Assembly: GCF_015706575.1 (NCBI RefSeq)
Contig: NW_024037076.1
Location: 22,733,286-22,797,285, forward strand
Direction: 5' to 3'
Source: Patiria miniata
Lineage: Eukaryota
DNA: 64,000 nucleotides
A program made the translations under genes and the position numbers. The notes below the pieces were generated by a model. That model saw nothing but the letters and a program-made list of their open reading frames with translations. It did not search any database and had not been told where the DNA came from. Every line of letters begins with the position of its first letter. Positions within the stretch are counted from its first letter, which is position 1. Of this stretch, positions 15-19,795 are shown piece by piece.

Positions 15-83
15 CTTGAAGAGATAATCCAGGATCTGATCCAGATACGGCTCAGGATAATTCACCAATAACCTGGACGTAGC
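15..83 (-). CDS. GALC: GALC paralog copy B exon 2, encoding [23 protein letters not shown]. The remainder of copy B lies beyond the left edge of the window.
   Basis: Positions 1-105 are identical to 12575-12680 apart from one synonymous change. The acceptor cag and the gtaaac donor are the same as in copy A. Confidence 0.75.
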
Positions 84-829
84 CTGGACAAAAACAAGTT
101 CATCTTCAAAATTAGTGGATGTTAAGGCTTGAAATGACAATTTATGGTAGGGTACCAATAGGTACTACTTTACTTACAATCCAGATGAAAAGGGAAATTT
201 CCAGTTAACTTCCGAGAGCTCACTGCTCATGGAAATGTTAAACTTCCAACTCATTTGAAAGACACATTGGGTCGTACCCAGTGTTTGTTAATGGTCCCGA
301 GTGTGATTCTGTTATTGTTAACTTAAGTTTTGACTAAAACAGTCGTCAGGTGTGCGCTTCAGCACCAGTTGACGAGGTTCTGTGTGTTTTCTTGTGGGTC
401 TCTTGTGACCACACTGTCACACCTAGGTTATGTGAATTCCTGATGAGCTTGTTAAGCTGGAGTTACTCAAGCTAGTTTTGAAGGTGAAATCTGATGTTTT
501 TGTTGGCAATGATGGGTTTTTGGGTCAACGGTAGCTTGAGTAACTCCAGCTTTAATCCTTATCTTATGCGATAAGCATTAGAGCTGGAGTTACTCAAGCT
601 AGGTCAACAGCAGAATTGTGTCACGTGATGGCAGCACCATTGCTTGGATCCTACTATCGCCAGACCACGTCCGAATGTTATTAAATAGGCGACAAGTTGG
701 GTCCCAGTTACTCGGACTGTATGGGCTGGGGTCATTAAATGATTTATCATGAGAATGTAATGACTGTTGAACCTGACTGTTTATCAATATCTAGCATTAT
801 TACACCATTTTTAATTTGTTTGCAAATAT

Positions 830-1433
830 GGTTGAATTATACATGTACATTAAATTGAAGCTCTGGACGGGAGGAAGACAATGGCGCAAAAATAAATGCC
901 ATAGGTGCTTCCTTTCAGGAGTTATGCCCTCCCAAAGACACCATACTCGTGACTCTTCTGGTCGTCATTTGTGTCAACGTGATTGTTTTCTTAGAAATGA
1001 GCATAGGCCCTACTGTTTATTTTAAGTTCCCATTTAGTCAAACTTGACATCAAATTAAAGCTCTTGATGTGAGAAAGACAATAGTGCAAACGATATTGCC
1101 GTAAGTACTTTCCATCAGGAATTATGCCCTCCTGAAGACACCATACTCCATGAATTCGTCTGGTTGTCATTTCAGTCAACATGATATTTTAGCTTCAAAT
1201 ATAGTCAAACTTAAAATCATATTAAAGCTCTGGTGTAAACGATATTGCCATAGGTGCTTTTGTTAAGGAGTTATGCCCTCCCGAACACACCGTACTCCTG
1301 TAACTCTTCTGGGCATCATTTAAGTCAACATGACTGTTTACTTAGAAATGAGCACACTGGGTTTTTTTAAGTTCAAATTAAGTCAATGTTTACATTAAAT
1401 TAAGATAGTGGATATTTTGCCGGAGGTAATGAC
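830..1433. repeat. Tandem satellite with a unit of about 185-200 bp and three and a half copies. The units carry conserved blocks attaaagctct, gccataggtgctt, gttatgccctcc and agtcaac.tga. The array continues as a partial unit after the insertion, at 1956-2010.
   Basis: Direct comparison of 848-1050, 1051-1215 and 1216-1395 shows 80-90 percent identity between the units. Confidence 0.7.
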
Positions 1434-1955
1434 GGCAAACTAACGTTTACTAAAGGTTTGCCGGCGGCAATCCATATCAACAGAGGGCGCTGTACTCTTT
1501 AAGATAGGGCTGAATTATAAGATGTATTAAATTCTCACCAAAAGTTGTGTAGCACGTTTAGTGTAGTGGTTAAGCAAAGGCTCTAGTAAGCGGGATGACT
1601 CAGGTTCAATTCCGACCGCAGCACATTTTTAAGGTTTTTTTTCTCATCCCCAAATAAATAAGAATATTCTTCTTTTATTATTTTAACATGTCTCAAACAT
1701 TTTTTTGCAGAGTATTACATTTTCTTTTTCAGATTTGTGGCTCTGGAGGATTTTTTTTAAAAGGGAAATAAAGTCCGAAATTATAAAATGGTCTGAATCC
1801 CATCTTGTGAATACGAGGTTACAACGATAATTTTGGCATGGAGCCAGACTAAAATTTGTCACCGGAAAATGTTTAAGTACAAAAAAACAGTAACTGCGCA
1901 TGTTCAGTGCATATCCGGCAAACTAACGTTTACTAAAGGTTTGCCGTCTCTGGCA
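1434..1955. mobile_element. Insertion of about 460 bp into the satellite, bounded by two identical 30-bp direct repeats GGCAAACTAACGTTTACTAAAGGTTTGCCG at 1434-1463 and 1926-1955. Each repeat is itself an imperfect palindrome. The insertion carries the tRNA-like element and a pol-III terminator.
   Basis: The terminal direct repeats are exact. An outer inverted repeat, atattttgccgg and ctggcaaaatat, is also present. Satellite sequence resumes immediately on both sides. Confidence 0.5.
1551..1626 (+). pseudogene. tRNA-like pol-III element (tRNA pseudogene or SINE head). It has a D-loop TAGTGTAGTGGTTA and a T-loop GGTTCAATTCC but no intact acceptor stem. Oligo-T terminators follow at 1626-1642.
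   Basis: Conserved tRNA D-arm and T-arm boxes (A-box and B-box) are present. The 5' and 3' ends cannot pair into a 7-bp acceptor stem. The element lies inside a hairpin-flanked insertion. Confidence 0.45.
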
Positions 1956-2223
1956 AAATATACACTGCCTTAAATTAAACCTCTTGATGTGCAAAATACA
2001 CTAGTAGTACTAGTATAAAAAAATCTCAAATTTATTTCCATTCTCTGTTATTAAACCGCTCTAATCCACCCCACTTCCACACCCCAGTATCAGTTTCACC
2101 CCATAGGCCCATCCCACCGGTACCCCAACACAACCCACGAGTTAAACACAATATCAAGTTTACTGGTTTGGTTAGGTTATCATGGTTATGGGGCTAGGAA
2201 ATCTGCAAATTTTAAGCACTTAC

Positions 2224-2370
2224 TCCTCCACCACTGAGTCCGCCAATTCCATCAAACCGCCTTCCAAGCCCTGGTACATCACTTATCACGTATTGAGAGG
2301 CTACAGAATAGCTACCAATCAACTGCAACACGAATAAAATGTGAAAAACCTCTGCGATAAAATACGACAT
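2224..2370 (-). CDS. GALC: GALC paralog copy B exon 1. It encodes MSYFIAEVFHILFVLQLIGSYSVASQYVISDVPGLGRRFDGIGGLSGGG and is followed by a gtaagt donor.
   Basis: The 147-nt exon is collinear with copy A exon 1 and differs at 5 aa (AH to SY, AS to VP, Y to F). The donor is the same, and the 5' UTR similarity extends about 100 bp upstream (2371-2470 compared with 14421-14520). Confidence 0.8.
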
Positions 2371-2595
2371 TGTCGGCTCCTCTCGATCTCAATGTTTAAT
2401 GATCTGGTGCCCTAAAATTGTTGAATCGGTACAACTACCACACCACTAGACACCAGACATACCAGGCGCCCAAAACATATGAGGCAAGATATGAGGCACA
2501 ACTTTTGACCACATATCTTTTATATTTCGTACTTGCTGCTATTACAAAAAAAATCGCGCGAGAGCCGACATGTTCCTTATCGAGTGCTGATTGGT

Positions 2596-2608
2596 CAGTT
2601 TGGGAGGT
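2596..2608. promoter_or_regulatory. Inverted CCAAT box (gctgATTGGtcag), about 230 bp upstream of the copy B GALC start codon.
   Basis: The motif is an ATTGG or Y-box type and lies in a CpG-containing segment (tcgcgcgagagccgac) 5' of exon 1 on the coding strand. Confidence 0.25.
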
Positions 2609-3508
2609 GTGGCACTTAATATTCATAAATCTGTCACAAGTTTTTATATTGATCACGAAATTACAAATAAATGCCCGTGAACTAACTTTAGTTATTACAG
2701 CAAATAGGCCAGGCCTGACAAATAAAGAAATAAATTATTATATTATTTAAAAAAAAAAAAAAGGATAAAAAGAACTCCACTTTCTTGAAAAATCATGAAC
2801 AAATGAATGTTGCATAGATTATTTTATTTTCCTCATCTTAACGGCACTTTACATTTGTTATGTCAAGAGTTAAATCATAATTTGTGGTTGAAATAGCTGA
2901 AGAAGTAATTCAATCCGATAACCAGGTCATTTATTTGGCCATTTTACATTCAGGCATCACTGTGGGAAGTTGATGTTCAGCTAATAAACCAGCTTTTGTC
3001 TGAAGTAGTATTCTCATGAAAGATTCTCCCTCCCACAAAACTCTCACTGTTTGCCAAACCAAGGTTATAATGGTTTGATAGCATTCATCATGGAATAACT
3101 CTCAAAGAAATGTATTCATACAAGTAGGAATAGGAAATATGACAATGCAAAGGCTCATTTTATTTCACTTCTAAAAATGAAAGAAAACTTGATTAAGCAG
3201 CTGGGAACACTTCCAGCATTCTGTAAGTACACAATTAAGTAAATTTTAACTTAAATACATGTACTCAGTTCTGTAGAAATATGTGGAAAATATAAAAGAG
3301 TATTACTACTCTTCAGACTAGAAATCTACGGCATATTAAGAGTATTACTACCCTTCGGACTACTCTACAGAATAATAAAAGTATTACTATCCTTCCGAAA
3401 AAAACAACTAGTTTTAATAATACAATGTAGTACCATCCAGTACATCAGTTTTTCAAATTCTCAGTAACACTAGCCAAATCAACCTGTATATTATGTTTTA
3501 GAGTGGTT

Positions 3509-3952: not shown

Positions 3953-4105
3953 CTAAGATGCTGAAATAATGTCGAAATTATCAAACTGCGCTGATGCATA
4001 GTTAGGCATTCCCATGGCAACGAATCCATGACTGGGGATTGTCTTAGGATCTAGTGATGCAGTGAACAGCGTCTTGCCTTGGACGAATCCTGTAGCTTTG
4101 TTGTC
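3953..4105 (-). CDS. GALC: GALC copy A terminal exon 15, encoding DNKATGFVQGKTLFTASLDPKTIPSHGFVAMGMPNYASAQFDNFDIISAS and the TAG stop at 3953-3955.
   Basis: The acceptor is ttgcctccag. The sequence matches the human C-terminus [25 protein letters not shown]. An AATAAA signal lies on the minus strand at about 3509-3514. Confidence 0.88.
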   Translation of the reverse strand, partial: DNKATGFVQGKTLFTASLDPKTIPSHGFVAMGMPNYASAQFDNFDIISAS

Positions 4106-4436
4106 CTGGAGGCAACACAGAGAAAATAAAACAAATGAAAAACAGTCACAGTGACCATCTGTGTACCATCAATACGTATCATGATCAAAACTGCATTCTC
4201 AAATGCACTGTGTATTACTAAATCTTTTAAAACTGGAATGTTGTAATTATTTTAGTATTTTAATGACAACAGATCCGCGATCCATGTCAATAAAATAATG
4301 TAATACCAAATATTCTCATTCATTCATAAATTGGCCAATTCAAAATCTGACCTTATAATATGCAACCATCTAATCAACAGACCATAAAGCCGTTGCTTAA
4401 CTTGGACATCCTGACCAACCACCGACAATTTCTTAC

Positions 4437-4513
4437 CTGAATCAGAAGTTGCATTTTGAACCACATTCCACTCTTGACATCAACTTGACCGGAATTCAGA
4501 AGAAATTGGCGAT
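4437..4513 (-). CDS. GALC: GALC copy A exon 14, encoding (H)RQFLLNSGQVDVKSGMWFKMQLLIQ.
   Basis: The acceptor is tttttttcaattcag and the donor is gtaaga. The sequence matches human [25 protein letters not shown]. Confidence 0.82.
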
Positions 4514-4724
4514 CTGAATTGAAAAAAACAACATTAAATTGTTAACATGACAAAGATATCTTTTGTAGTATTTCCTTGTTTTGGGTGCTACAGTGAGTAA
4601 TAGGCAGGGCTGTTTTTGGTATTACAATGACTAAAGGATTAAATCAATTACTTCATTATTCCAAAGGTAAAAAGTTACACCAAATTCAGTTGAAAGGCTC
4701 TGTGATATATAACAATGAACTTAC

Positions 4725-4882
4725 GTATGTCTGAGTAAACAGCAAATGTCCCATTGGAGTAAACAATAAAGAACAGTCCCGTTGCCGCGACAACCTTACA
4801 GCCACCATGGTTGATACGTTGCGCAAGAAATGCACCGGTATTATCTCCCAGCTTGACGTCCATGGAAACGTTGGCGTTCTGC
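4725..4882 (-). CDS. GALC: GALC copy A exon 13, encoding QNANVSMDVKLGDNTGAFLAQRINHGGCKVVAATGLFFIVYSNGTFAVYSDI.
   Basis: The acceptor is ttccattgtag and the donor is gtaagt. The sequence matches human [56 protein letters not shown]. Confidence 0.88.
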
Positions 4883-5252
4883 CTACAATGGAAATAAATA
4901 GCAAGGTAGTTCTAACATCACAGTGTAACATACATGGAGGAGAATACAGAATGATCAAATAAATCAAATGCCTACACTTGCAACACATTGGCAAACCAAA
5001 AAATATGTTGATTGGCAAAACAAAAAATGGCTAAATATTTTGGACGCACCAGTCAGATAAACACTACAAGCCTCTTAGGAGTTCCTGTGAGATCCATCCC
5101 CCCACCCCCGAAATAATCCACTGATAAAATGTCTTATTTTGCTCCCATCTGCAATCCAGTCTGTGCCGACTTGGTCACAAAACACAACCTAAGGACAAAG
5201 AAAACACAGACAGGCAGACCAACTAACAAACGATAAGACCAAATCCATTTAC

Positions 5253-5427
5253 CAGGAGTAGTTGCCAATGACAGAGATAGGAGACTCAGCCGCTGGACAC
5301 CAATAGACTGGTGACTCAAGGACAACCTGTTCCATCACCAATTTATGAGTCGGGTCACCAGACTCTCGAATCTCCCAAACACCGGCCTGGTCAGCAAAGT
5401 TACTAGCTTCGCTGAATTCTGGGTAAT
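5253..5427 (-). CDS. GALC: GALC copy A exon 12, encoding (N)YPEFSEASNFADQAGVWEIRESGDPTHKLVMEQVVLESPVYWCPAAESPISVIGNYS(W).
   Basis: The acceptor is ccatccag and the donor is gtaaat. The sequence matches human [60 protein letters not shown]. Confidence 0.88.
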
Positions 5428-5812
5428 CTGGATGGATAGAATTCATTGGCAGAAAAACAAAACAATAATTGAATGTAGAGGGTATATTCATGTGGAATTT
5501 AACCTGATTATTGTTGAAAATTTGCTGTTGATAAATTGAAAGCAACAATATCATCGGCAGCACCACTAAGTGACATATCGTGTGCACAAAGTCCATCTAC
5601 AGATGCACCCAACAATATGAAAGAAAAAAACTGGAGTGCAATTTTGACGAAAAGCACAGAAAGAGATAAAGGCGGCTACAAAGGCACAAACAAAGAATTT
5701 AAGTGATACAACCTTAATACCACAACAGGTTCAAAGCCTTTTTCAACAGAAGTGAACTTTGTTGGGAGCTATGGTTAGGTTGCATAGATGATATAATTGA
5801 AAACAAACTCAC

Positions 5813-5954
5813 TGTCAAAGTTATCTGAGTAAGGTACAGGGAAGGGGGCAGATGGCGGGGGTGTAGGGTAGTTCCCCTTATAACCCCTCTCAGTGGTTGT
5901 CAGGGTGTAAACCTCATCAGGATTCAGACTTAAGGTGAAACTGCCATTCACAAC
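5813..5954 (-). CDS. GALC: GALC copy A exon 11, encoding VVNGSFTLSLNPDEVYTLTTTERGYKGNYPTPPPSAPFPVPYSDNFD.
   Basis: The acceptor is tttcag and the donor is gtgagt. The sequence matches human [47 protein letters not shown]. Confidence 0.88.
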
Positions 5955-6164
5955 CTGAAATTAAGCAAGAGGCGAAATGTTCAAATCCAGCATTAAATGA
6001 AAAGTCAGGCCAGTCGGTCAGGCTGAGCCAAAAAAAGTCATTTCAAACCAACAAAATTGTCTTTGCCAACCATTATCAAAATATTTGAGGCAGTAAGAAT
6101 ACGATTCTGTGGTCTTTACGTTAAGTCAGGAATTAGACAAACACCTCGGACATTGAAAGCCTAC

Positions 6165-6254
6165 CTTAATTGGATTCTTCTTGGCAAACATTGTTGATGT
6201 CTGGCCACTGAATGTGAGCTTGGAATACCACACATTAAGACTGCTAACTTTGGC
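6165..6254 (-). CDS. GALC: GALC copy A exon 10, encoding AKVSSLNVWYSKLTFSGQTSTMFAKKNPIK.
   Basis: The acceptor is cttttcag and the donor is gtaggc. The sequence matches human [25 protein letters not shown]. Confidence 0.85.
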
Positions 6255-6563
6255 CTGAAAAAGTAAAAGAAAAAAAGAAAATAGAATACCGACCCATTTT
6301 GCATTTGTTTGGAGATACAATTATTGAAAAATAAACAAAAACTGTTGCAAACTTCTGACTTATTAGATTTACCTGAAATGTAAAACTATAAAATTTAGGG
6401 GGCCTAATGTGAAGATCGTAGATGGATCTTTTCTTTTTAAAGTTTCTGCTTAGATCAAAATGTCAAGACCTCCAACTTGATTGTTTGTAGATAATGTGTC
6501 ATCACAAATGTGAACTGAACTTATATTTTGTTATTGTTCTAATAAAGATGACATTTTACTCAC

Positions 6564-6653
6564 AAAACTGCCTTGGAGAGTAAACTTGGCTGTCTGGGGT
6601 GCCACATTGTAAGGTGGTAAGTAGGGGCGGATACACTTAGAATGATCATGAGT
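6564..6653 (-). CDS. GALC: GALC copy A exon 9, encoding [30 protein letters not shown].
   Basis: The acceptor is ttttttttacag and the donor is gtgagt. The sequence matches human [30 protein letters not shown]. Confidence 0.88.
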
Positions 6654-7011
6654 CTGTAAAAAAAATGTGAATTAAATGTTATTGTGTGTTACAAGGTTTT
6701 TTCTTCAGTGGAACTGTTTCCTTGAATTTTAGTACACTTAAAGCATGACATATCTTTAATATCTTGTAATATGAAGCTTGGCAAGAAAAGATTATATATT
6801 ATTGCATAATTTCTCTTCATTCCACCTTTAAACTAAAACTTCAGAATCCTGCCTTCGGATGTCTTGAATAAGACAGAACGTGAAATGTGATTTTGTCATA
6901 TGAAAGCAGTTTAAAGCAATCAATCGTTTCTACAAGTTCATACTTGAATAAAATTCAAAATAAGTTTCTGGGTTTTTTCTTAAATAGATTTTTTCTTAAG
7001 TGTCTACATAC

Positions 7012-7145
7012 CATAGTCTCTATAATGATGGTCAAATTAACACCGTCCGTCATGGATACAAAGCTTCCTCCCTTGTCTAGATGCTGCACTCCAGACTTGT
7101 GCTTCAAATACATCCATCCCGGATCAGTAAACTGAGTGGTATGAG
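7012..7145 (-). CDS. GALC: GALC copy A exon 8, encoding (A)[44 protein letters not shown].
   Basis: The acceptor is ttgttcag and the donor is gtatgt. The sequence matches human [43 protein letters not shown]. Confidence 0.9.
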
Positions 7146-7677
7146 CTGAACAAAATATACAGTCGATTAGACAATTATGTGTAGACGATTCAGACTTTGT
7201 GTCTGTGGCTACAGATGTTCACGGTAGTGTGTCAATCATTGCAAAGCCGTAGTCAAATAAATACTGGATTACAACATATTTGACAGTCTGCATGATGAAG
7301 TTAGCAATGAGAGTAAGTTTGCAGTAGAACTATTTATGTCTGTGGGTTTGTGTGGTTCCGTTACAATCCAGGAAATAAAACATGTTGTATAGTAAGCTCT
7401 GCCTGATCATCAGAACTCTCAATAAATAACTGATTTAGAATGTGGTCTTACAAATTTTTACTACCAACTTCTTAACTGCGGGAGCGGAGGGATTTAGCCA
7501 CAACGTTGAATGAAGAGGTTGTGATGAACTCGCAAGCTACGTCATGCTTAACAAAATCAAAATCAGACTCTGAAAGGTAACTATCATTTCTATGTCAACT
7601 TCGTAACTGATTGGTCTTCATCAGTCCATTATGTTTACGGCAAACTGAACATCTTACAGAGCGCCCTCATTACATAC

Positions 7678-7840
7678 CCGTTATCCAGATTGTATCAGTG
7701 ACCTCATAGTGCGAATTCCACGGCTCGTTGGCTGTCATAAGTCCGTCACGTGTATACGGCAAAGCGTCATAGTACGATGCTATCAGGTTCCAGGAGATTG
7801 TAGAAGTCATCATTCCATTCACGTAGTTCTGGTTCAAGAT
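7678..7840 (-). CDS. GALC: GALC copy A exon 7, encoding [54 protein letters not shown].
   Basis: The acceptor is tctgcag and the donor is gtatgt. The sequence matches human [54 protein letters not shown]. Confidence 0.9.
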
Positions 7841-8113
7841 CTGCAGATAGCAAGTCAGGAATTCCAATCAATTTGGAATGAGCGATACAGGTGCAGTGCC
7901 AACAAATGGAGACTTTCAACCAGTTCTTTTGAGAACTACACAAACTTACAAAAGAGATTTCTTTCACATGGTGCACCAACAAACTTCCTCTGACACAACT
8001 TTACCAGATAAAATGATTAAATAAACCAACAAAGATGCTTGCATGCAACAAAATAAGTTAAAACAGCCTACACAGATTTATCACACACCAAAAAAACCAT
8101 AACTGTCGCCTAC

Positions 8114-8231
8114 CCTGGCCCAACATCCTGCTCCAACTTCATTATTGTTTGTGCTGTAATCTTCCGATGCCCAGATGGTCTTGCCAGTTTCCAACGTGTA
8201 GTTGGTGACTTGAGTCCCAGGATAATGCACC
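8114..8231 (-). CDS. GALC: GALC copy A exon 6, encoding [39 protein letters not shown]. It contains the nucleophile-region motif SEDY (human SSEDF).
   Basis: The acceptor is cctacag and the donor is gtaggc. The sequence matches human [39 protein letters not shown]. Confidence 0.9.
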
Positions 8232-8740
8232 CTGTAGGAAGTACATTTTATTTTATTGCAATTATACAACTTAGAGTGCATCACAAATTTCAATTCATGA
8301 TGTGTTTGATGATCTTTAGTTTTGGTATAATTTATTACCTATCTGCTCATTGTTCTCCACAATAGAAAGTTCTTATCTCTAACAAAAAATGCATGTCTAA
8401 ACACTGATGGTGCTCATATGATGTAATGACATTGCTAAATATTTACCGTTATTGATAATGTTCAATTGCTTCAAGTTAACAACTTTGCTAATACCATCTT
8501 TAAAAGTTAATTACAATATAATTAGCTTGCTTAGGAATGATAAACTCATTTACAAGTGAAGTTAGAGTGTCATGGTGTACAGCAGAATGGTAGGTGCGCT
8601 GGTTTTAAGGAAGCACAGGAGATCAAAGGAGTATGATATGAACAGAAAATATGAAAGAAAATAATAAATGAACCTCAGCCACCAAACAGTTGCAGTCCAA
8701 TTGATTGATGAAATAGGAAATACATGTGTTTGAATCATAC

Positions 8741-8907
8741 CCAATAATAGCCACATCTTTGGCAATTTCTGGGTCGTTGTGTATCGCGATACTGATGAAT
8801 TCAAGATTGTCAGCTGCTACAATTAGCGTCTCAGAAAGACCTTTCTTATCCAGCGTTTTTCGGAGAACTTTTATGTATTCAATATCAAAGGGTCGTTCGT
8901 TCCATAT
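8741..8907 (-). CDS. GALC: GALC copy A exon 5, encoding IWNERPFDIEYIKVLRKTLDKKGLSETLIVAADNLEFISIAIHNDPEIAKDVAII(G). It contains the WNE acid/base motif.
   Basis: The acceptor is cag and the donor is gtatga. The sequence matches human [34 protein letters not shown]. The exon ends with GG, completed to a glycine codon by exon 6. Confidence 0.9.
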
Positions 8908-9338
8908 CTGATAACAGAAGAAGCAAAGTTACCGTATAAACAAACAAAAAAGTTTTATATGCCATGAATTTCAAGATGTGGCACATTCAAAACATTTGAC
9001 AAAGTTTAAAAATATGCAAATACGTTCTCGCTCGAACCTTGGATTGGGCATCATGGTCCAAAGATTGACAGTCATATTGGGGAGGCCATTTTACAGTTAC
9101 CGCAGACCTTTGACCTTTGTATCCCATGAATGGAGTTTTGATAGCCTGCCCTGAAATTTAACTACAATTGCCCCCCAAAAATGCAAATTCTAAGGCAACT
9201 TCACTGCAACAGGAACCTTCCAAGGAAAATGTTACTGGTTTTAAGTTAGAATGATGCATTAATTCGCGTGATAAGGAAGCATTAGTGCAGCCATCTTGGT
9301 CATGTTCCCTAATAACTGCTATAAAGGGCCATCAGATC

Positions 9339-9532
9339 CATTCGCTCTTTGCACGTTCCTCCATATGTAAGCATGCAGTGCCTCGATCTGGCAACTTTGC
9401 ACGATAAAAATAGCCGGTTTAGTGATTCCCATGTATACACGCGAATAACTGAACCGGCGATATTTATTGTGTAAAGTTGCCCGATCGAGGCTCTGCATGC
9501 TCATGGCAGCTAGAAGCGTGCAAAGAGTGAAT
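9339..9532. repeat. Long palindrome or foldback element of about 195 bp in GALC intron 4. Its arms are cattcgctctttgcacg..gcatgcagtgcctcgatctggcaactttgcacg and cgtgcaaagttgcccgatcgaggctctgcatgc..cgtgcaaagagtgaatt, separated by an inner palindrome aaatagccggtt/aaccggcgatattt.
   Basis: Reverse-complement comparison shows about 90-nt arms with only a few mismatches. Confidence 0.6.
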
Positions 9533-10304
9533 TGGCACCAGACCATTTTGTAGCAAAATTAAGTTGGCTGCAAGTTAGCTAATTGTTCGCAACATCTTAG
9601 TTACATTTCACTAATTGTTAAGACTGTCTTATATTCTGAACCCATTCTGAGACTGTGCAATAGAAAAGTGGTTGTGTATCATGTCTCTTGACGACAGGGA
9701 AGAGTATTCTGTCTGAAAATGTTGACTTTACCCGAATCTTTACAGAACCTCACAAACTCACAAAACAGATTTGTCAAGTGGCGCTAACACAAATCTTTAT
9801 GCTATTGCTATCTTCCCCACACAAACCTTCAAATTTGATTATGAGCACTGTATTTTTAATGAAATGCACTCTGATGTTTAAATGTGCGCAAAGAAAAAGC
9901 ACAGAGGTGGAAAGCAGATTTAGGATAGATGAACTCAAGCCTCCTACCCTATAATCTGAACAGCTGCAGCCAATGCTTTATCCATCAAGATATCCTGACT
10001 GATTGCTGATGTCCCATCAGCAGCAACCACTGCTATATGGCTGAGGCCAGCTTTGTTTAGAGAGGATCTCAAAGTCTTGATGTAGGTAGAGTTATATGGC
10101 CTTTCATTCCAAATCTAGAATTAGGAATATTGAATTCTTCAGTATATGGACCAATTTGGAAGAACTCTTGAATTTAAGTATCAAGTCACATAAATATTGC
10201 TAAACAAATTCAAAAAATACAATGGCATGGTAGAAAGACCAACTTAGACAAGCAGCAGCAGAGGAAAAAAAAGAAAAAAAATAATTGTAAAAATAAGCAA
10301 TTAT

Positions 10305-10500
10305 TAGTATTTTTTTTTTTTTAATTAATTTATTCAGCTTATCAAATTAGGTTTTGCCCTTCACCGACATATAAACACTGTATACTCAGTGTGTTACCTC
10401 CCGAGTGAAAGTTGGAAAGAATCACTCGGGTGGGACTCAAACCCACGACCTCCTGCTTTCTAGTGCAGATGTCTTACCACTCGACCACCGAGCTAATGGG
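10305..10500 (-). mobile_element. tRNA-derived SINE-like element in GALC intron 4. The tRNA-like head is at about 10425-10497, with a B-box GGGTTTGAGTCCC. The body ends in an A-rich tail (plus-strand T-run at 10307-10321).
   Basis: A-box and B-box motifs, a tRNA-like cloverleaf with imperfect stems, and a 3' poly-A tail are all present. The element is related to the copy at 51730-51800. Confidence 0.5.
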
Positions 10501-11098
10501 ATCGGTTGGCTGGTTCGAATCTGATGTACATAGCAGCATGGATACAGCATGGTACATCACAATACAACAGACAAAAGCCAGCAGCAAATGCCAGAAATTG
10601 AAAAAGTTAACTTATTAATAACTGTGATCGTATGGCCTTCAATACCAATACCAGTGGCTACAAATCACATACATTAAAAAGAAGAACAGTTGCCGAGTTA
10701 TATCACATTGAAGTCATGCATTTATCCATGCAAGAAAGTGGTAACTGCAAAATGGCCTACCCAATGACCTGAACTGCCTTGGCCAGTGCAGGATCCTTCA
10801 GGATATCATAACTGATTCGAAATTTGCCGTCTGCAGCAACAACTTGAACATGGTGGAGTGATTTCCGATCTAGAGTTGCCCTAAGTAATTTGATATATGA
10901 AGCATTATGCTTCCTTTCATTCCATATCTAAAATTGGGAAAAAAGAAAATTCTTGAGAATCAAAACTTTTAAACATGTTGAAAAACATGAAACACACAAT
11001 TTGAACTCATTTGATGCCTGCCATTTTGAACTATTACTTGGCTGGACAATCAAATTTGGAGGAAGAAAGCTATATAAAAATAATCAATTGAAACTTAC

Positions 11099-11263
11099 CC
11101 CAATATAATCAATGGTCAGATTGTGGTGAGTTTTTGCTCCTTGTATCCATTTGATGATGTAGTCAACAGTGACATCAATATTGACATAGGGACTTTGTTG
11201 GCCATTCCCAATCCAGCCAGGGAAAGCCCAAGGAAGGCCATACAGCTTGATGCTTGGATTGCG
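11099..11263 (-). CDS. GALC: GALC copy A exon 4, encoding [21 protein letters not shown]...NLTIDYIG.
   Basis: The acceptor is ttctgcag and the donor is gtaagt. The sequence matches human [21 protein letters not shown]...DLDIDYIG. Confidence 0.9.
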
Positions 11264-11883
11264 CTGCAGAAAGATGTAACATGAAACAGTAGTAGACTAA
11301 TAAATCACCCAAAAGATTAAAATGCCCTAATAAAAATCCAAGCATGCTAAAATTGATTCCTACAATTCAGTAAGAAAAAGCTGATCAAATGAAAAGAGAG
11401 AAGGTCAATTAACCCAGCTTACAGATTACTGAAGAAAATATAAACCTGAAACAGTAGCCAGTAATATTAGAAACCATTGATGGCAATCCTGGAAGGTTCA
11501 TGAAGAGTTTTCTTTTATAAAAAAAAGTTTATAGTGCACCATTTATCAATCTGACACCATCCGTTTGATTGAATGTGACTGAATCAGGACAAGTGTACAA
11601 CGCCAGGGAATAAGTCAGGCTGTAATTTCCTGAATGATACGATGCTACAATGCAATGAGTCTCATTAAGTCACAGGTGGTTTTGTATTGCTGCTAGGAGC
11701 AAAAAAATATGAAAATGAAGCATGGGGTGAAATCCAGGCTATGGAGTCTGCACTGAGGAAACAGTACCTTTTAGTGTCAGATGGTGTCCAATGTTTACAT
11801 CCATCCAAAACTTCATAAGTGTTCAGCCCCCCCCCCCAAAAAAAAGTGGTGTAAGAGCACCTCAAAACAAGTCTCTCTGTTAC

Positions 11884-12036
11884 CTTTTTAGCCTCCTTCA
11901 TCAGCCACCATTCATATCCTCTCTGATAATTCTCATCGTTAGCTGAATGCATATGAGATGACTCTGTTCCATCAGTGCTTTGTGAGTCTCCACCAATCTC
12001 AACCTTTAAGATGGGAAGTGATGCTCCAAAATTTGG
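11884..12036 (-). CDS. GALC: GALC copy A exon 3, encoding [51 protein letters not shown].
   Basis: The acceptor is ttaacag and the donor is gtaaca. The sequence matches human [51 protein letters not shown]. Confidence 0.9.
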
Positions 12037-12587
12037 CTGTTAACGTGCAGAATCAGAAGTAGTTCATTACTTATGTGCCTGGTTGGAGATAATGTCTGAT
12101 AAGTTTGTTCATATCTGCAGTTGTACCAAGCTGCTTAGTGCAGCCACATAGTTATAAACTAATATTAACATTTTCCTTATTTGGTGAAAATTTCAATTTG
12201 GTAGTTAAAAATAAAACTAGAGGTGGTTGTAACTGAAGATGTTCCCAACATATTTTTAACTGTCTATTGGACAGTACAAAATGATTGAATGATTTGTCCA
12301 AAATGTGTAACCATTGAAAATGAAATTTAATCTTTAATAATTGCAAAACTGGAAGAAAAGGTCACATGACCTTGACATTCCAGGAGGTGGATTCCAAATT
12401 CCAGTCTACTATGTGAAAATGTGTGAAGAAATAGAATAACTTATTGTACTGTTAAGATATGGTGGCCACAAAATTGCCTCATTAAATATTCATGACGTCA
12501 TAACACAAGAACAATAAACTGCACAGTAATAATAATGACAAAAAGACATTTATTCCTTAGAAAAGGTCAATTTTCAGAGCCGTTTAC

Positions 12588-12656
12588 CTTGAAGAGATAA
12601 TCCAGGATCTGATCCAGATACGGCTCAGGATAATTCACCAATAACCTGGATGTAGC
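12588..12656 (-). CDS. GALC: GALC copy A exon 2, encoding [23 protein letters not shown].
   Basis: The acceptor is tttttgtccag and the donor is gtaaac. The sequence matches human [23 protein letters not shown]. Confidence 0.9.
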
Positions 12657-14273
12657 CTGGACAAAAACAAGTTCATCTTCAAGCTTTACTTTAGCTTTGA
12701 TCAAATCAGAGTCAAGGTAGCCGTATTCTATGGCCATGCACTGGACTAAACTCCGTGCTGAAGGCCATACTTCCCTGACAACAAGAAGTTACTGAAAAGA
12801 TGTTCTTTTTTTTCATAGAAATCATTTGGCCTCAAACTCGGCATGCAGGTTCACTTACCCATGCGATTCCATTATTTGCCAAAATGAGGACTTCTCCGTT
12901 GTTCTTTCTGGTGTAATTTGTATCTTACTTTGTGACACGAAGCAGCCGTTCTGTCATCGATCACGCGAACATTAACGATAAGTGTTTTCAGCGCTATGGC
13001 TAGTTCCTGTGCCCGCGTATTCTCAACCGGAGAAGACCTAGACGTACAGGTAAGCTTTAGACAGGAGGTTCGGCTACAACAGTTAAATCACTTTGGTCGG
13101 AGAACTAGACTAATACTACACTCAGCTGCCAGCCATGAACTTCCACTTCGGTTGGCAAATTAATTTTTAATAAGAGGCAAATTTCACCAGAAGGAAATAA
13201 AGGGAAGTCCTAATTTTGGGCAAATATTGAAAGGTCTTTTTTTTCTTCAAACTGCCAATCTTTGGATGGAACGTGCGTAAGACCGAGCCACAGAGTTTAC
13301 TATAGACTACGGCGAGGCAAAAAACATACTGTTATTCGTTGACGAATTTTCAACTATCAGAGATTCTACAACTAATATTTTGTTTCAACAAACATTCGAT
13401 GCAAGAGTTTATACGACTGCAAAGTATGAACAAAATAGGCGAAATCACACAGTCCGAGTGATGTACTGAGGAGAACATTTTCTCCTTTTTCGTGATTTTC
13501 TAACAAGCCGTCCACATGTCAAAGCGCGAGTCCGAAATCTGTCCAAAATTTCTTTTCTTGAGTTTTTATTGAAAAATTCTGGAAAGAATGTTGCAACCTG
13601 ATGGCTGAAGCCACATCAGTGGTTGTGTACAAAGTCTATGGACAGTCAAGACAATTTTCTGATTATTTCCTTAAAACAAAATTGAAAACGTTTCTCAGTC
13701 ACAGATCCATGTCTAATCTTTATGCAATGACTGACCCTCATTGAGATGATACATGAAGAAAAAAGCAGCGTCAGGTTGCAACATTCTTTCCAAAGATCTT
13801 TGTGTATCATTATCAAGAAGCTTACAGTTTCCTTTTCAAAATGCACTCCGTAGAAACAATAGTATTGGAAACCAATTCTAAAAGAGGTCAGTTTGGAAAG
13901 ATTCCTATATCTGGCCATCACTAAAAAATTGTCCCTTTGGCTTTATTTTTAGTTACCTATCTGCCATCATAAAGAGGATCGGCCTATGTCCTAAAAAGTC
14001 AAATTTAATAACAGGAAAAATATTGAATAATGAAGTACTTACTGAGAAAACACATACACAATTTCAGAGCAGTGTCATAGGGTTTGTGCACAGGGTGACA
14101 AGTGATGGCCAGGTATGGGAATATTTCCATACGTTTTTATTTGAAGCGATCTGGAACTTGGAAAAAAATCCAGAACTGTAGGGCCTGGAAAACCACTGTA
14201 CACTGCTACTGCAAATTGCAATTGAATCGTGAAATCGGGGGGGCAAGGAAATCTGCAAATTTAAAGCACTTAC

Positions 14274-14420
14274 TCCTCCACCACTGAGTCCGCCAATTCC
14301 ATCATACCGCCTTCCAAGCCCTGATGCATCACTTATCACGTATTGTGAGGCTACAGAATAGCTACCAATCAACTGCAACACGAATAAAATGTGAAAAACT
14401 TCTGCGATAAAATGCGCCAT
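14274..14420 (-). CDS. GALC: GALC copy A exon 1, carrying the ATG and the signal peptide. It encodes MAHFIAEVFHILFVLQLIGSYSVASQYVISDASGLGRRYDGIGGLSGGG and is followed by a gtaagt donor.
   Basis: The ATG sits at 14418-14420 on the minus strand. The hydrophobic leader and the DGLGR.DGIGG.SGGG motif match the human GALC N-terminus. The exon ends at the same position as human exon 1. Confidence 0.88.
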
Positions 14421-14544
14421 GGTTTGCCTCCTCTCGATCCCAATGTTGAGTGATCTGGTGCCATGAAATTGTTGAACAAGAACTACATACCGTACCACTA
14501 GACGCCAGACATGCCAGGCACCAATTATTTCTCGTCACCTGATG

Positions 14545-14554
14545 ATCACGTGAC
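14545..14554. promoter_or_regulatory. CLEAR-like palindromic E-box aTCACGTGAC (9 of 10 positions match the TFEB/TFE3 CLEAR consensus GTCACGTGAC), about 125 bp upstream of the GALC copy A start codon.
   Basis: The plus strand reads gatgatcacgtgacccaag. GALC encodes a lysosomal hydrolase, and lysosomal genes are typically regulated through CLEAR elements. The motif is absent from the equivalent position upstream of copy B. Confidence 0.4.
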
Positions 14555-14559
14555 CCAAG

Positions 14560-15260
14560 CTTTTGGGGGCCGGGGGGGGGCCGCAGGCAAGGGGGGGGGC
14601 ACAGAAATATTTTTGGGGCAGTCAAAATAATATCTGATTCCCCAAAAAGCTAAGGCACAAGCAGTGCAATGGCACGTTTAAATGAAACAATCACTACAAT
14701 GACACAAATGACTACGGTATTAGTTTGTCATAATGCTACAAAACTAAAATTTCACTATTCTTTCAACTATAATTCTGATTCTGAATTGTAGTACTTTTCT
14801 TGTTAATATGACATGGCACATTTATTTTGAAAAAAAAAAAACTGAACTATTGAAGTGTCCCATAAATGATCACATGTCTACTGGAATTGTGTAAAGAATA
14901 GTGTCAGTTGAAGCACAGTCTACAGGCGTGGATCCAGAGGGGGGCGGGGGGGTCAAAAAAAAAAACCAGCTCTGTCCAAAAAAATTTTTTTCCATACAAT
15001 ATCCTAAAAAATAAGTCGAAAACCCCCCCTGCTGTGACACCCCAAAAAAGTTATACTGGTATAATGTTTGCCTGTTCAAAATACGGTACACCATTCTGTA
15101 ATGTAGTGTTAATAATCATCAAATTTGAACAGCGCCCCCTATTAAAGTATGGTACCAGCCCCCCCCCCCCCCAAGTGTCAGGAGAAAAAAAACCTGTGTA
15201 CATTTTCTGAATTTTTTGCTGATGAAAACCCCCCCCCCCCCCTGCGAAAATTCCTGGATC
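14560..15260. repeat. Low-complexity block rich in long G and C homopolymers (G10 at 14571, G9 at 14586, C16 at 15157, C14 at 15226, plus several G7-8 and C7 runs and A-runs), immediately upstream of the GALC copy A promoter. The segment 14922-15270 is bounded by tGGATCCagagggggg and ctGGATCCgcccctgg.
   Basis: The tracts can be read directly in the sequence. The ORF-track entries 14870..15344 fall inside this block and are artefactual. Confidence 0.6.
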
Positions 15261-18200
15261 CGCCCCTGGTCTAGTCGAACATATCAATGAATTGTGCGCT
15301 TTTTCATAAAAGCATGAAACTTGGCACAAGTGTTTTATATTCATGCAAGAAAATGTTTTAGATGTGGAGCCATCGCAAATTCACACATTTAGGGGCGTGA
15401 CGGCCATTTAAAAAAAGGGGGAGGGGCTTTATCATCATGCCCGCAGTGAAAATGGTTTTTGCCAGCCACTTATCACAAAAAAGCAGGAAACTTCGCAAAG
15501 ACAAAATTATGTAGATCATACGTGTTTTCCAGTTTCACGCTTTATAAAAAAGTGCACAATTTTGTCCACTGGACTAAGAGTAAGGAAAGACTTCAATGGA
15601 TGAAGTTCGTCACATGAAATAATCCAATTTACCAAGTAAACGATTATGTAGGAATCTTGATCACAAAATGCAATATAAACTAAAAATCTTTTCTTGGACA
15701 ACCACAAGAAGGCACACACTAACAAATATTTTGTACTTTTGTTTACAAATTATACCTTTTTATTTGCTTTATTCCCCCATCATTCTACAAAACCAGTGTT
15801 TTGGGAAAATTGCTTAATGTTATACTTTTTCCCTGACATTAGCTGGCTATGCCTAATAGTCATACAATGCACATGTATCTTACTATGGCTAACTACTCTC
15901 CACATTGTGAACCAAAATTCAACCATCAATTTCATTTTGTTTCCCAGGGTTTGTATACAAAATTAAGATATCACCCAGATCCCCATAACATCTATAATTT
16001 GTTTTTATTTGGACTCTATAGTTACTGTATCTCTGGACTAACTCATTTTTGTTTAAACCCAAATATTACATTTTGTACACTCCTCTCCAACTTTTTTTAA
16101 GTTTTGTTTACTTCTACAAACCTACACACTACTTTTGTTTATCATTTATAACTAAATTCTCCCAACCTACCATTCCAAAACACACCCACCCTTAAAATAT
16201 TTCACATTATGTATACATCTTCCTTATTAAATTCTCCCAGTGTGGTTCAACACTGGAATTTATGGACTTTTAACACATTTTTGTAACAATGGACACTGAG
16301 TACAGGTACATTTGTTTCTTACTTTAATAATCCAGCTACATTAACTAAAAACCACACAAAACAACCAATCACATTTCTGATTAGTTTCCTAAAAGGACCA
16401 ATCACATTGCTGATAATATGCACATGTGACCATTCCAAACTTGTTTACCTTTTATGGAAAAATCAGTGCACAATGCTAGAGGGCGCTTCAGTTGCTATGC
16501 CAATATGGAGCAAGTTGCTACGCCAACATGGAGCAAGTAACATCTGCCACCAACAAAATTCATTCCCATAAATTTGATTGGGGTCAATGCACTCCAGTAT
16601 TGTGCAAATATTTCAAGTATTACAATATATAATTACTGTCACATGTTTAATTATTTCACAACTGACTGGCAAACCAGTAAACTCCCAAGACTTCAGGCCA
16701 GCTCTTCCACACAGCTACAAAAACTTTCACAAAGAACGAAATTAAAGTATTTTTATATGAAACAATATCAAATATCCCCTAATATACCCACGTTCACACC
16801 CCCAACCCCACTCACAAGTATCATTCATATCACATGAGAAAAATACACACCATCATCATCCCTGAAGACATTAGGCCCTGCTTTGTTTCTTGGAACAAGC
16901 AAGACAACTCTGACGGTATAAAACTTTCATAGAAAAATTGAAAAGTTTGTTTGTGCATATCATTAAGAAACTAACGATAATCAAACAGAACTGTGGAAGA
17001 GCTGGCCTGACAGAAACTTGAGTTAATCCTCAAATCATTTCACATTAAATGGTAATAAAACCAAGTAGTCTTTGTCCAGGGTAACAAAAAAAATTGGTTT
17101 TTCAAACAACACTGAATTCTTTGTCATTTATTTTACTATTACCCTCGCTGGTCAACATGTAGGAATTTTAACTAACTGGCCAAGCAGGCAATTTAAAGGG
17201 CTCCATTCTCATTAGGCTCCTTGCGGTCAGTACCAATCTCCCATTATTTGCTTTTCCAGATGGTAACCATATAAACATGTACTAAGGAGACTTTTCATAT
17301 TTATCAACTCCATGAAATTCACCCTATTTTTTATTAACGGCAACATATATTAAACATAAAAGCACACAGTCTGACCAAACTAATTATAAATGTACACATG
17401 ATACAGCAGAAAAGTTTTACTTTCATCTCATTTTCCCAGAGAACTCCAGTGTAGAAATAGGTACAGAAAGCAAGAAACTAAATTATGCCAACAGCACCAG
17501 TAGAAAGAATAGAGGATGAATGAAAAGGTCATCCAGAAAAAGAAATCACTTTTCTTTCTTGCTTTTTTACAGCTGATTAAAGCAAAAGGCTATTCACAGA
17601 GCGCAGTGTGGTGAACTTGCTTCAAATTTAGTTTCACAACCATTTTATAAAGAAATAAACATGGTCCCCGTTATTACAAAACATTCCCGTCACAAAAGAC
17701 TATGCATGTTATAAATATCAATTCATGAGTATTAATGACCATATTAACAAGTTTATGTCCTTCACACATTTGCGAACTCACAGATTTTCACTTTAGTCAA
17801 TTTCTTCTTGCAAATTACTGTAACTGATTAAAAAAAAAGCTTTAAAAAAGGAAGCGTGAACAAGGTGATAGTGAAATTTGCAGAACTACTTTATGGAGAC
17901 AGAGAATTAATACTAAACTGCAGCACTTCATGATATGTGTGATTGCCAACTAGGTGACAAATAACATAAAATCACTGAAATCAACTTATCACAGTATATC
18001 TGACTTATCTATGGGTAGTGTTTATATACACTTAAAGACAACGGAAACCAACCAAATCCTTGTCTTTTCACATTGTTTATGTTACAGTTGTTTACTTTAA
18101 ACTTAATGTATGTATCTACTTGACGAGTTTTTTTTTGTTCTTTTCAACGAGGGCATTTCATATCACTTATTTACATTGGGCATTGTAACAAGAATGTCTT

Positions 18201-19635
18201 GAGCTATTAAGCAGTGTCATCATTTCTGTACTTTCACCAAATCTTTACCAGATTGCAACTAAACTTCTCTGCACACTTATTCACAAAAGTTAAATCCAAA
18301 ATGGCACACTCTGTAATCAAACTGCCGACAAGACAAAAATGGCCAGGGAAAAAGGAAGAAAAAAATCCAGATAAAGTACTGCAGACAGAGACTATTTATA
18401 ACCAATTTATGAATTACATTTTACCCTTTTTTTTACTTGTTTTGATTTTTTTTGTGCAGCATCATAATTTTCATAAAATCAAACTGTGGAGTGTTGGTTA
18501 AAAAAAATGAGAAAAAATCAAACAAGGCACTAAATGATGCATTTTATACCCTGAGTGACTTGTGTCCGTCTTGATGCGCAACCCATTGCAACAAATCAAA
18601 GAGATCTCTTGAATTCATGTCGAGATATAATACACAAGTCCAATCTATTACTTTCTTATGAAGTGTTCGTCAAATGTAATCATTACTTTCAATATACAAA
18701 AGTCACAAACCAACTCTTATCAAAGCTGGTGTATATAATCCAGGATTTGAACAAATGACAGAAATATTAGATCAACATCCAAATCTCACAGAATGACATA
18801 ATACGAAGACCATCTAGAGACATTAAACACATACAACACAAAATTCAGGGGTATGCATAACGCTTACAAGCATCTCATAACAAGGTTTATTAAATGCCTA
18901 CATCAGTAACCATTTCTTGTCAAGTCTGAAACACAATAACCAAGCCATTCCTTTCTTCTTGAAAGGATGAGAATATGAACCATTTTTCTTGTTACAATGC
19001 CTTTGAATTTCATCTTGATCAATAATGAACAATGCCGACAGGTTTTGAACAGCAGAGAAATAAAACTAAAGCGTTTCCATTTTCGTCTGGCTGTTTTACT
19101 AAGTTCCATCTTTCTTACTGTGATCCATCTATGTGGCATTCTGGAAATTCCCATCTTATTGTCAATGGATTCTAATTACGCCAAATTATCTTCCTTAGTG
19201 GAATGTCCATGACTCAAAGTAAAGTAAACAGCGAGTCTCTTTATCCCCCAAAGTTGCTTTTATCACAACAGACATTGTCTGAAACCCAGGCAAGTCAACG
19301 ACATCTGTCCATACCCAAAACTTGGCAAATAACCATTTCATTTTATCTAAAACAGTTTGTACACATATAATATATATCAAAATGCAAGGATTTACCCCCT
19401 GCACTACATGTACATTTTACCCACCACCCACATTGACTTAATTTTCTTACTATTTTGTTTAATACTTTACGTTATTTCTTTGTACAATATTCATCACACT
19501 TTCTCTCTCTCGTTACTTGGTGTTATTTTTTACACCATTTGGCAATTTTTAGCCAATTTCTCATAAAGACAGCTGAGCTTCAATGACCAATCATCTGTCG
19601 CCCAATCACGCTAGGCCCGACTTCAGACAAGCCAA

Positions 19636-19795
19636 ACCACCTGACAAGTCATGTGATAAATACTAGACATCACATGGTATCACATGACCGGTTCTAAGGT
19701 TTATAGTCTCATTAATTATCAAACCACCTGACAAGCACATCATGTGATACACATATCACATGATCAGATCTGCTCATCACATGATTGAGGTAAAC
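19636..19795. promoter_or_regulatory. Cluster of E-box and M-box palindromes. It consists of two direct copies of CAAACCACCTGACAAG followed by TCATGTGATA..ATCACATG(A/G) repeats, giving about 8 CACCTG or CATGTG boxes in 160 bp.
   Basis: Boxes observed are accacctg (twice) and tcatgtga, atcacatgg, atcacatga, atcacatgat and tcatcacatga. They lie about 280 bp 3' of the TIA1-like stop codon. Confidence 0.35.

Follow-up and report, generated by a model that had tools for sequence, protein, structure and literature searches.

The window, which is the whole 64-kb stretch of Patiria miniata DNA that was analyzed, has a eukaryotic composition (GC 37.5%, CpG observed/expected ratio 0.47) and carries two copies of GALC on its minus strand. 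The coding region of copy A (3953..14420) has 15 coding exons and encodes 666 amino acids, with the ATG at 14420 and the stop at 3953, and every intron of the spliced model has GT-AG ends. There are three alternative copies of exon 5, giving three splice variants that are 100% identical to the P. miniata proteins XP_038045330, XP_038045331, and XP_038045332. The closest GALC proteins in the database contain PF02057, PF17387, and PF21708, the domains of GH59. Because the spliced model is identical to the RefSeq isoforms and its closest relatives belong to GH59, copy A is identified as a true GALC (GH59) orthologue, that is, a lysosomal hydrolase gene. Human GALC has been treated as a CLEAR gene (PMC10998821); in the literature searched, that paper only names it a "CLEAR gene," and a mapped GALC CLEAR site was not found.

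GALC copy B (15..2370, minus strand) lies at the left edge of the window. The window includes its exon 1 (2370-2224) and exon 2 (83-15) with intron 1 between them, and what remains of the gene lies beyond the edge. A reading of this DNA from its letters alone, referred to below as the sequence-only reading, had taken copy A to be the only complete copy. Copy B is in fact a full-length gene cut by the window edge: its product, XP_038045329.1, begins MSYFIAEVF at the ATG at 2370, has 666 amino acids, and is 94% identical to copy A. Comparison of the window with itself finds only two stretches of similarity between the copies, 2190-2470 with 14240-14522 (89.8% identity) and 1-109 with 12574-12682 (99% identity), and the introns of the two copies do not align.

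The upstream neighbor of copy A is a TIA-1/TIAR homologue with a recognizable TIA-1 RRM3 sequence, located on the same strand as GALC-A. Collinearity with Acanthaster planci runs from -1287 to -10385, through the coding exons and the long 3' region of this homologue, and it confines the promoter of GALC-A to about 1.29 kb (14421-15707). A bidirectional promoter was considered and rejected, since the neighbor shares the orientation of GALC-A and stops about 1.29 kb upstream of it. Further away, at 19.6 kb, there is a cluster of M-boxes, and a conserved region 3' of the TIA1-like gene carries the same composite of boxes as the GALC promoters described below. A tandem repeat was rejected as the origin of the cluster because Tandem Repeats Finder reports no array there.

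The upstream regions of the two Patiria copies

Two adjacent E-boxes are found upstream of copy A. E-box 1 is of the CLEAR type and occupies 14545..14554 on the minus strand, at -134..-125 relative to the ATG of copy A. It reads ATCACGTGAC on the plus strand and GTCACGTGAT on the gene strand, its CACGTG core is at 14547-14552, and the plus strand around it is tcgtcacctgatgATCACGTGACccaag. The gene-strand sequence matches the CLEAR consensus GTCACGTGAC at 9/10 positions and contains a perfect TCACGTGA core. The box lies within the 1.29-kb intergenic region, bounded at its far side by the conserved end of the 3'UTR of the TIA1-like gene. These observations agree with the sequence-only reading, which had described a near-perfect CLEAR element about 125 bp 5' of the ATG of copy A, and the element does stand ahead of a true lysosomal-hydrolase orthologue. 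That reading reported a single E-box; the box is real but is one half of a pair. E-box 2 (14534..14543, minus strand) reads ATCAGGTGAC on the gene strand and contains TCAGGTGA at -122. Its flanks match those of E-box 1, and it is the downstream member on the gene strand, with the two cores 5 bp apart. The whole module reads GTCACGTGAT-C-ATCAGGTGAC on the gene strand, with the boxes at -133 and -122.

Other candidate elements lie between the pair and the gene. A putative inverted CCAAT box (ATTGG on the gene strand; 14521..14525, minus strand) is located 8 nt downstream of the pair, between it and a conserved proximal block. This block, GTGCCTGGCATGTCTGGCGTCTAG (14497..14521, minus strand; -101..-77), is common to copy B and to A. 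planci, where its counterpart is at -159..-134 with a local alignment score of 28 that was matched by 1 of 300 shuffles. The proximal 102 bp of copy A (14421..14522, minus strand) are about 90% identical to 2371-2470 of copy B and are presumed to be 5'UTR or core promoter. Detectable similarity between the copies stops at 14522, inside the inverted CCAAT box.

The upstream DNA of copy B is of a different kind. Upstream similarity with copy A is limited to -102..-1 and ends 22 nt short of E-box 1 (14522/2470). Neither CACGTG nor any TCAnnTGA is present in the 1582 bp from the stop of copy A to the ATG of copy B. The sequence-only reading had proposed that the homologous position upstream of copy B has diverged and lacks CACGTG. 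The lack of the motif extends over all 1582 bp, but the homologous position is not clearly definable where the similarity has already stopped; MAFFT pairs GTCACGTGATCATCAGGTG with GATATGTGGTCAAAAGTTG at 12/19 positions, a match that could be due to chance. The motif was also said to occur upstream of copy A only. No box is found upstream of copy B, but an identical TCACGTGA was missed in its intron 1 (620..629, minus strand; GTCACGTGAT on the plus strand and ATCACGTGAC on the gene strand), 1741-1750 bp downstream of the copy B ATG. It stands alone, without a second box close to it, and it could supply copy B with the same input as copy A.

A conserved 44-bp element with a CCAAT box lies upstream of copy B at 2582..2625 on the minus strand (-255..-212 of copy B), with the CCAAT itself at -224..-220 from the ATG. 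The element is unique in the sequence compared and has a match in A. planci with 91% identity in a 45-column alignment. The A. planci match lies between the two genes, 1.87 kb past the stop of GALC and 2.1 kb before the ATG of SFXN, and it is followed there by a TATA-like stretch and then by an apparent non-coding exon ending in GTAAGT. In copy B a candidate TATA box, TATAAAAG, is located at 2517..2524 on the minus strand (-154..-147). Because the 44-bp element matches the GALC-SFXN intergenic region of A. planci, the DNA upstream of copy B originates from the region ancestrally downstream of GALC, a location other than that of the DNA upstream of copy A. The foreign DNA begins beyond about -102 (at most -212), and it supplies copy B with its CCAAT and TATA-like boxes.

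This arrangement points to a tandem duplication unit of about 12 kb (14522 down to 2471) with its junction between -102 and -212 of copy B. The E-box pair of copy B would have been either cut off by the breakpoint or lost by later decay. The difference between the copies is at least partly a replacement of upstream DNA at the duplication junction, and not point divergence alone. A promoter other than that of copy A, acquired by capture and containing CCAAT and TATA-like boxes, probably drives copy B. The suggestion of the sequence-only reading that the regulation of copy B is something different fits with what is found upstream of it, namely these boxes and no E-box module.

GALC promoters of other echinoderms

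The GALC loci of six other echinoderm species were compared, and every E-box upstream of each ATG was listed. The scanned region was 1.3 kb upstream of the ATG, and a strict box was defined as a TCACGTGA, TCATGTGA, or TCACATGA 8-mer. In Acanthaster, Asterias, Amphiura, Diadema, and both copies of Strongylocentrotus, paired boxes of a similar kind precede the GALC ATG by 40-300 bp. A. planci, which belongs to the same order as Patiria, has GTCATGTGAT at -208 and ATCACATGAT at -195. Asterias rubens has GTCACCTGAC at -56 and CACCTGAC at -39. In Strongylocentrotus purpuratus the downstream copy has GTCAGGTGAC at -263 and GTCACATGAC at -246, and the upstream copy has TCAGCTGA at -299 and GTCACATGTGAT at -275. 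Amphiura filiformis has GTCAGGTG at about -104 and GTCATGTGAC at -82, with CAGGTG between them at -93, and Diadema setosum has ATCACCTGAC at -227 and GTCATGTGAC at -214. TCAnnTGA boxes are nearly absent from the remainder of the 1.3-kb upstream regions. In A. rubens the 1.3-kb upstream scan finds CACCTG boxes only and no box of the MiT/TFE type, and in the crinoid Anneissia japonica it finds no box at all. The real promoter in other species could be elsewhere if an unannotated 5' non-coding exon exists.

The orthologous boxes share GTCA..TGAY flanks, and their core is CATGTG or CACATG, the form known as the M-box (TCATGTGA or TCACATGA). Patiria alone among the species compared has the exact CACGTG core. 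Conservation in orthologous GALC promoters, on which the sequence-only reading had made its proposal depend, is borne out in an altered form: the flanks are the same but the core differs, and A. rubens and the crinoid lack such a box. Parsimony suggests an ancestral core of the CATGTG type, with the CACGTG of Patiria as a derived, fully palindromic form of higher affinity. The second box also has a recurrent sequence. Its consensus across species, GTCAGGTGAC, differs from the CLEAR consensus by a single central base, and it retains one perfect GTCAC half-site, as the M-box does.

Judged from the window alone, E-box 1 is suggestive only. CACGTG occurs 9 times in the 64-kb window against 5.07 expected, which is not significant, and TCACGTGA occurs twice against 0.45 expected, with at least two occurrences in 7/100 shuffles. 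Dinucleotide shuffling of the 300 bp that precede the ATG of copy A yields a CLEAR-box or M-box 8-mer in about 2% of trials. The case that E-box 1 is not random comes from the recurrence of such boxes in other species and not from the window counts. Four of the six other species (A. planci, S. purpuratus, Amphiura, and Diadema) have a strict box no more than 300 bp upstream of the ATG. The Poisson-binomial probability of this recurrence is 2e-5 against the locus-wide density of strict boxes and 1e-6 against dinucleotide-shuffled promoters. The motif class was broadened from CACGTG to CAYRTG once A. planci had been seen, so that Diadema is the sole clean out-of-sample test. The Diadema locus, fetched after the motif class was fixed, is positive, and the chance of such a match is 0.02-0.03.

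Of the 49 strict boxes in 330 kb, those with a TCAGGTG/CACCTGA within 30 bp belong only to four GALC promoters and to a single conserved region 3' of the TIA1-like gene; by expectation, 0.7% of strict boxes would have such a neighbor. The core-to-core spacing is 4 to 11 bp in six of the seven pairs; outside Patiria it is 4, 6, 7, 10, or 11 bp, and it is larger in the upstream copy of S. purpuratus. The relative orientation of the two boxes varies among species.

In A. planci and Patiria copy A, a GTCAYGTGAT box lies just upstream of the conserved block GTGCC..TGTCTGGYGTCTAG, which is common to both Patiria copies. The tandem copies of S. purpuratus share 90% identity, against 58% with Patiria, which indicates that they arose by an independent duplication, and both retain the GTCACATG box. 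Sea star, brittle star, and sea urchin lineages split roughly 480 million years ago (PMC4709884). Overall it appears that the E-box pair is a promoter module common to sea stars, brittle stars, and sea urchins.

The factor that may bind the module

The explanation favored here, with about even confidence, is that E-box 1 belongs to a conserved proximal module, most likely bound by Mitf, that was retained by copy A and lost by copy B. E-box 1 would be one half of an echinoderm GALC module made of two adjacent E-boxes with CLEAR-type flanks (GTCA..TGAY), and the most likely binder would be Mitf, the single echinoderm MiT/TFE factor, as a homodimer. The CACGTG or CATGTG box would be the strong site, and the CAGGTG box with its perfect GTCAC half-site the weaker one. 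Binding of Mitf would tie GALC-A to the lysosomal gene program in the manner of mammalian CLEAR elements. From the arrangement of the sequences we infer the identity of the binder, activation by it, the start sites, and differential expression of the two copies. CAGGTG is not a documented MiT/TFE site, and the second box, which we also infer to be a weak site for the same factor, could belong to another one.

Mitf is the best candidate because the flanks are of the CLEAR type, the orthologous cores are M-boxes, the affinities of MITF fit these forms, there is a single Mitf, and human GALC is treated as a CLEAR gene. MITF's KD values toward the M-box, E-box, and CLEAR box are 2.6, 1.5, and 0.9 nM, and the protein contacts the flanking T at -4 (PMC6355916). 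MiT/TFE factors do not form dimers with MYC, MAX, or USF (PMC6355916), and the ability to bind the asymmetric M-box sets them apart from the remaining bHLH-ZIP factors (PMC9363479). The Mitf gene is single in invertebrates (PMC9363479), and this holds for sea urchins (PMC9363479, PMC4709884). There is no report of a lysosomal function for echinoderm Mitf (PMC9363479).

The preference for TCACGTGA is common to several bHLH-ZIP factors, and the module could be functional and read by USF, by Mlx with Mondo, or by SREBP, which would link GALC-A to general, sugar, or lipid signaling in place of the lysosomal program. USF binds GGTCACGTGACC-type sites, Mlx/Mondo bind a ChoRE made of two E-boxes 5 bp apart, and SREBP targets typically have an E-box or SRE adjoining an NF-Y CCAAT box. 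Copy A offers something to each of them: GGTCACGTGATC matches the classical USF palindrome at 11/12 positions, its cores are exactly 5 bp apart (CACGTG-N5-CAGGTG), and its inverted CCAAT box is close downstream of the pair. This resemblance weakens outside Patiria. CATGTG and CACATG cores are poorer USF sites, and the M-box cores of the orthologues argue against USF, Myc/Max, and ChoRE alike. With their T/A flanks these cores have the M-box form of MiT/TFE sites (PMC6355916, PMC9363479). A ChoRE as a conserved feature was rejected, since the 5-bp spacing is kept in no other species and the pair does not conform to CAYGNG-N5-CNCRTG, the second box departing from CNCRTG at position 3. Another bHLH-ZIP factor as the reader of the module is a possible but rather unlikely explanation.

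The main evidence against a simple Mitf reading is Asterias, where the boxes are of the CAGGTG (CACCTG) type only. It raises the idea that the GTCAGGTGAC (CACCTGAC) box is the dominant part, bound by class-A bHLH or Snail/ZEB proteins, so that the CAYRTG box is secondary or incidental and the CLEAR reading misleading. CACCTGA/TCAGGTG boxes are indeed widespread, occurring in P. miniata copy A, Asterias (two), the downstream copy of S. purpuratus, Amphiura (two), and Diadema, and the same composite is present 3' of the TIA1-like gene. MiT/TFE-type boxes are equally widespread, however, and CAGGTG is absent from A. planci, where both boxes are M-boxes. The single central change that separates GTCAGGTGAC from CLEAR, together with its GTCAC half-site, also suggests a related bHLH-ZIP factor and not Snail/ZEB or E-proteins, and dominance of this box is judged quite improbable. 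Least probable of all, and very unlikely, is a chance CpG-containing palindrome with no regulatory role. It would be consistent with the unremarkable counts of CACGTG and TCACGTGA in the window and with the post hoc choice of the motif by the sequence-only reading. Against it, the same class of box is found in the same place in four of the six other species (P about 1e-5 to 1e-6), the Diadema match was predicted ahead of reading the locus, and the composite is otherwise almost absent from 330 kb.

A more speculative proposal, which is considered unlikely, is that the module is an undescribed bipartite cis-element of echinoderms. It would consist of a CLEAR-box/M-box (GTCAYRTGAY) and a GTCAGGTGAC box, would mark GALC promoters across classes, and would recur 3' of the TIA1-like gene. 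Such an element could be read by Mitf with relaxed specificity for the central bases or by Mitf with a partner. If this is true, the A/B pair is a natural experiment in which the duplicate exchanged the module for the promoter of SFXN, the gene downstream.

Embryos of P. miniata are a laboratory model that can be used for reporter injection and knock-down. The paralogs differ in exactly the E-box module and so may provide an internal control for its function, and they illustrate clearly how the junction of a duplication can rewire the duplicate. Control of lysosomal genes by MiT/TFE factors is established in mammals, flies, and nematodes, and a 2022 review notes the lack of such reports for sea urchins (PMC9363479). 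The CLEAR-box/M-box module of GALC would be the first concrete, testable target for a link between Mitf and the lysosome in echinoderms.

Relation to known regulatory systems

The Patiria locus resembles several known systems to different degrees. The CACGTG-N5-CAGGTG of copy A is like the ChoRE of Mondo/ChREBP-Mlx in its layout and unlike it in its ill-fitting second box and in a spacing that is unkept elsewhere; GALC is not known as a sugar-response gene. The upstream region of copy B resembles cases of partial promoter duplication or promoter capture, through which tandem duplicates may diverge in regulation: it shares about 100 bp with copy A and then continues into foreign DNA with its own CCAAT and TATA-like boxes, the junction being somewhere in the interval given above.

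The regulons of Drosophila Mitf (V-ATPase genes) and C. elegans HLH-30 (lysosomal and autophagy genes) have in common with the echinoderm case a presumed single ancestral MiT/TFE factor and T-flanked E-boxes (PMC6355916, PMC9363479). The fly and nematode regulons have been shown by experiment, whereas the echinoderm one is proposed from the sequences of one gene family. The M-box (TCATGTGA) of MITF targets is bound by MITF about as tightly as the CLEAR box (PMC6355916), and exact TCATGTGA/TCACATGA boxes are present in Acanthaster, Strongylocentrotus, Amphiura, and Diadema. Classical M-box genes function in melanocyte pigmentation, in contrast to the lysosomal hydrolase encoded here, and the box in Patiria is a fully palindromic CACGTG.

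The mammalian CLEAR elements (GTCACGTGAC), which are recognized by TFEB, TFE3, and MITF, differ from the module in that the host here is an echinoderm, the site is putative, the partner box is a CAGGTG variant, and the orthologues have an M-box core. They are alike in having a palindromic CACGTG with T at -4 and A at +4, in a presumed promoter-proximal position, and in having a lysosomal hydrolase as the target. In addition, CLEAR genes often have more than one copy of the element per promoter, and the pair of boxes in Patiria is similar in this respect.

Alternative exons and possible gene conversion in the GALC pair

The sequence of GALC-A, the minus-strand GALC gene, suggests alternative use of exon 5. 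Three tandem copies of this exon are found on the minus strand (10927-10761, 10114-9948, and 8907-8741). Each is 167 nt long, which is not a multiple of 3, and all have intact AG/GT splice sites, so the trio looks like a mutually exclusive exon cluster. The RefSeq isoforms X3, X2, and X1, respectively, are exact counterparts of these copies. Equal-length GALC isoforms number three in A. planci and in both Asterias species, and two in sea urchins. Copy B, the tandem duplicate cut by the left edge of the window, has one isoform, and its nearest counterpart in GALC-A is exon 5b. The intron separating exons 5a and 5b contains a tRNA-like sequence (10421-10495, minus strand), which scores 47 bits as a tRNA in Rfam and whose anticodon ARAGORN left undetermined. 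Its probable identity is a tRNA-derived SINE or a pseudo-tRNA.

The two copies are unevenly diverged. The exon 2 regions (12574-12682 in copy A and 1-109 in copy B) are 99% identical, compared to 90% for the exon 1 regions (14240-14522 and 2190-2470), while the introns do not align. This pattern suggests that the tandem copies have recently undergone gene conversion.

The upstream neighbor and a nearby M-box cluster

Gene order upstream of GALC is shared among three sea stars. The upstream neighbor on the minus strand (15900 to about 25000) is homologous to TIA-1/TIAR; a fragment covering RRM2-RRM3 hits PDB 2mjn with an E-value of 2e-29, and the C-terminal open reading frames of the gene are Q-rich. 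The order RRM gene followed by GALC is common to P. miniata, A. planci, and A. rubens, and SFXN lies downstream of GALC in A. planci. A non-coding block (15707-15923, minus strand) is conserved with 88% identity to A. planci over 190 bp and 94% to A. rubens over 87 bp, and in each of the three species it lies roughly 1.0-1.5 kb upstream of GALC. An AATAAA is present in the block, which probably represents the conserved 3' terminus of the TIA1-like 3'UTR.

Six M-box-like sites (TCATGTGA, TCACATGA) are densely clustered at 19633-19785, together with two copies of AAACCACCTGACAAG. The cluster includes the same composite of CACCTGAC and TCATGTGA that is found in GALC promoters. One possibility is that it acts as a distal enhancer, located 5.2 kb upstream of GALC-A; another is that it is a 3'UTR element of the TIA1-like gene, whose stop codon lies about 300-450 nt upstream of the cluster. 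The A. planci counterpart (about 4581-4715 of its GALC locus, L002) retains one composite and an additional M-box.

Promoter surroundings and the sea urchin tandem pair

Long G-runs (14561-14603) adjoin the E-box pair, the two adjacent boxes at 14534-14554 upstream of the GALC-A ATG, and could form a plus-strand G-quadruplex. The roughly 345-bp element at 14923-15268 looks MITE-like: its two ends (14923-14953 and 15228-15268) are imperfect inverted repeats, each about 30 nt long and with many runs of G and C. In A. planci and S. purpuratus, too, poly-C runs are found upstream of the GALC promoters.

S. purpuratus likewise has two GALC genes (loci L004 and L006), arranged in tandem head-to-tail and encoding 666 aa and then 677 aa. 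They are 90% identical, and each has kept a GTCACATG box some 250-275 bp upstream. This tandem pair is a duplication independent of that in P. miniata.
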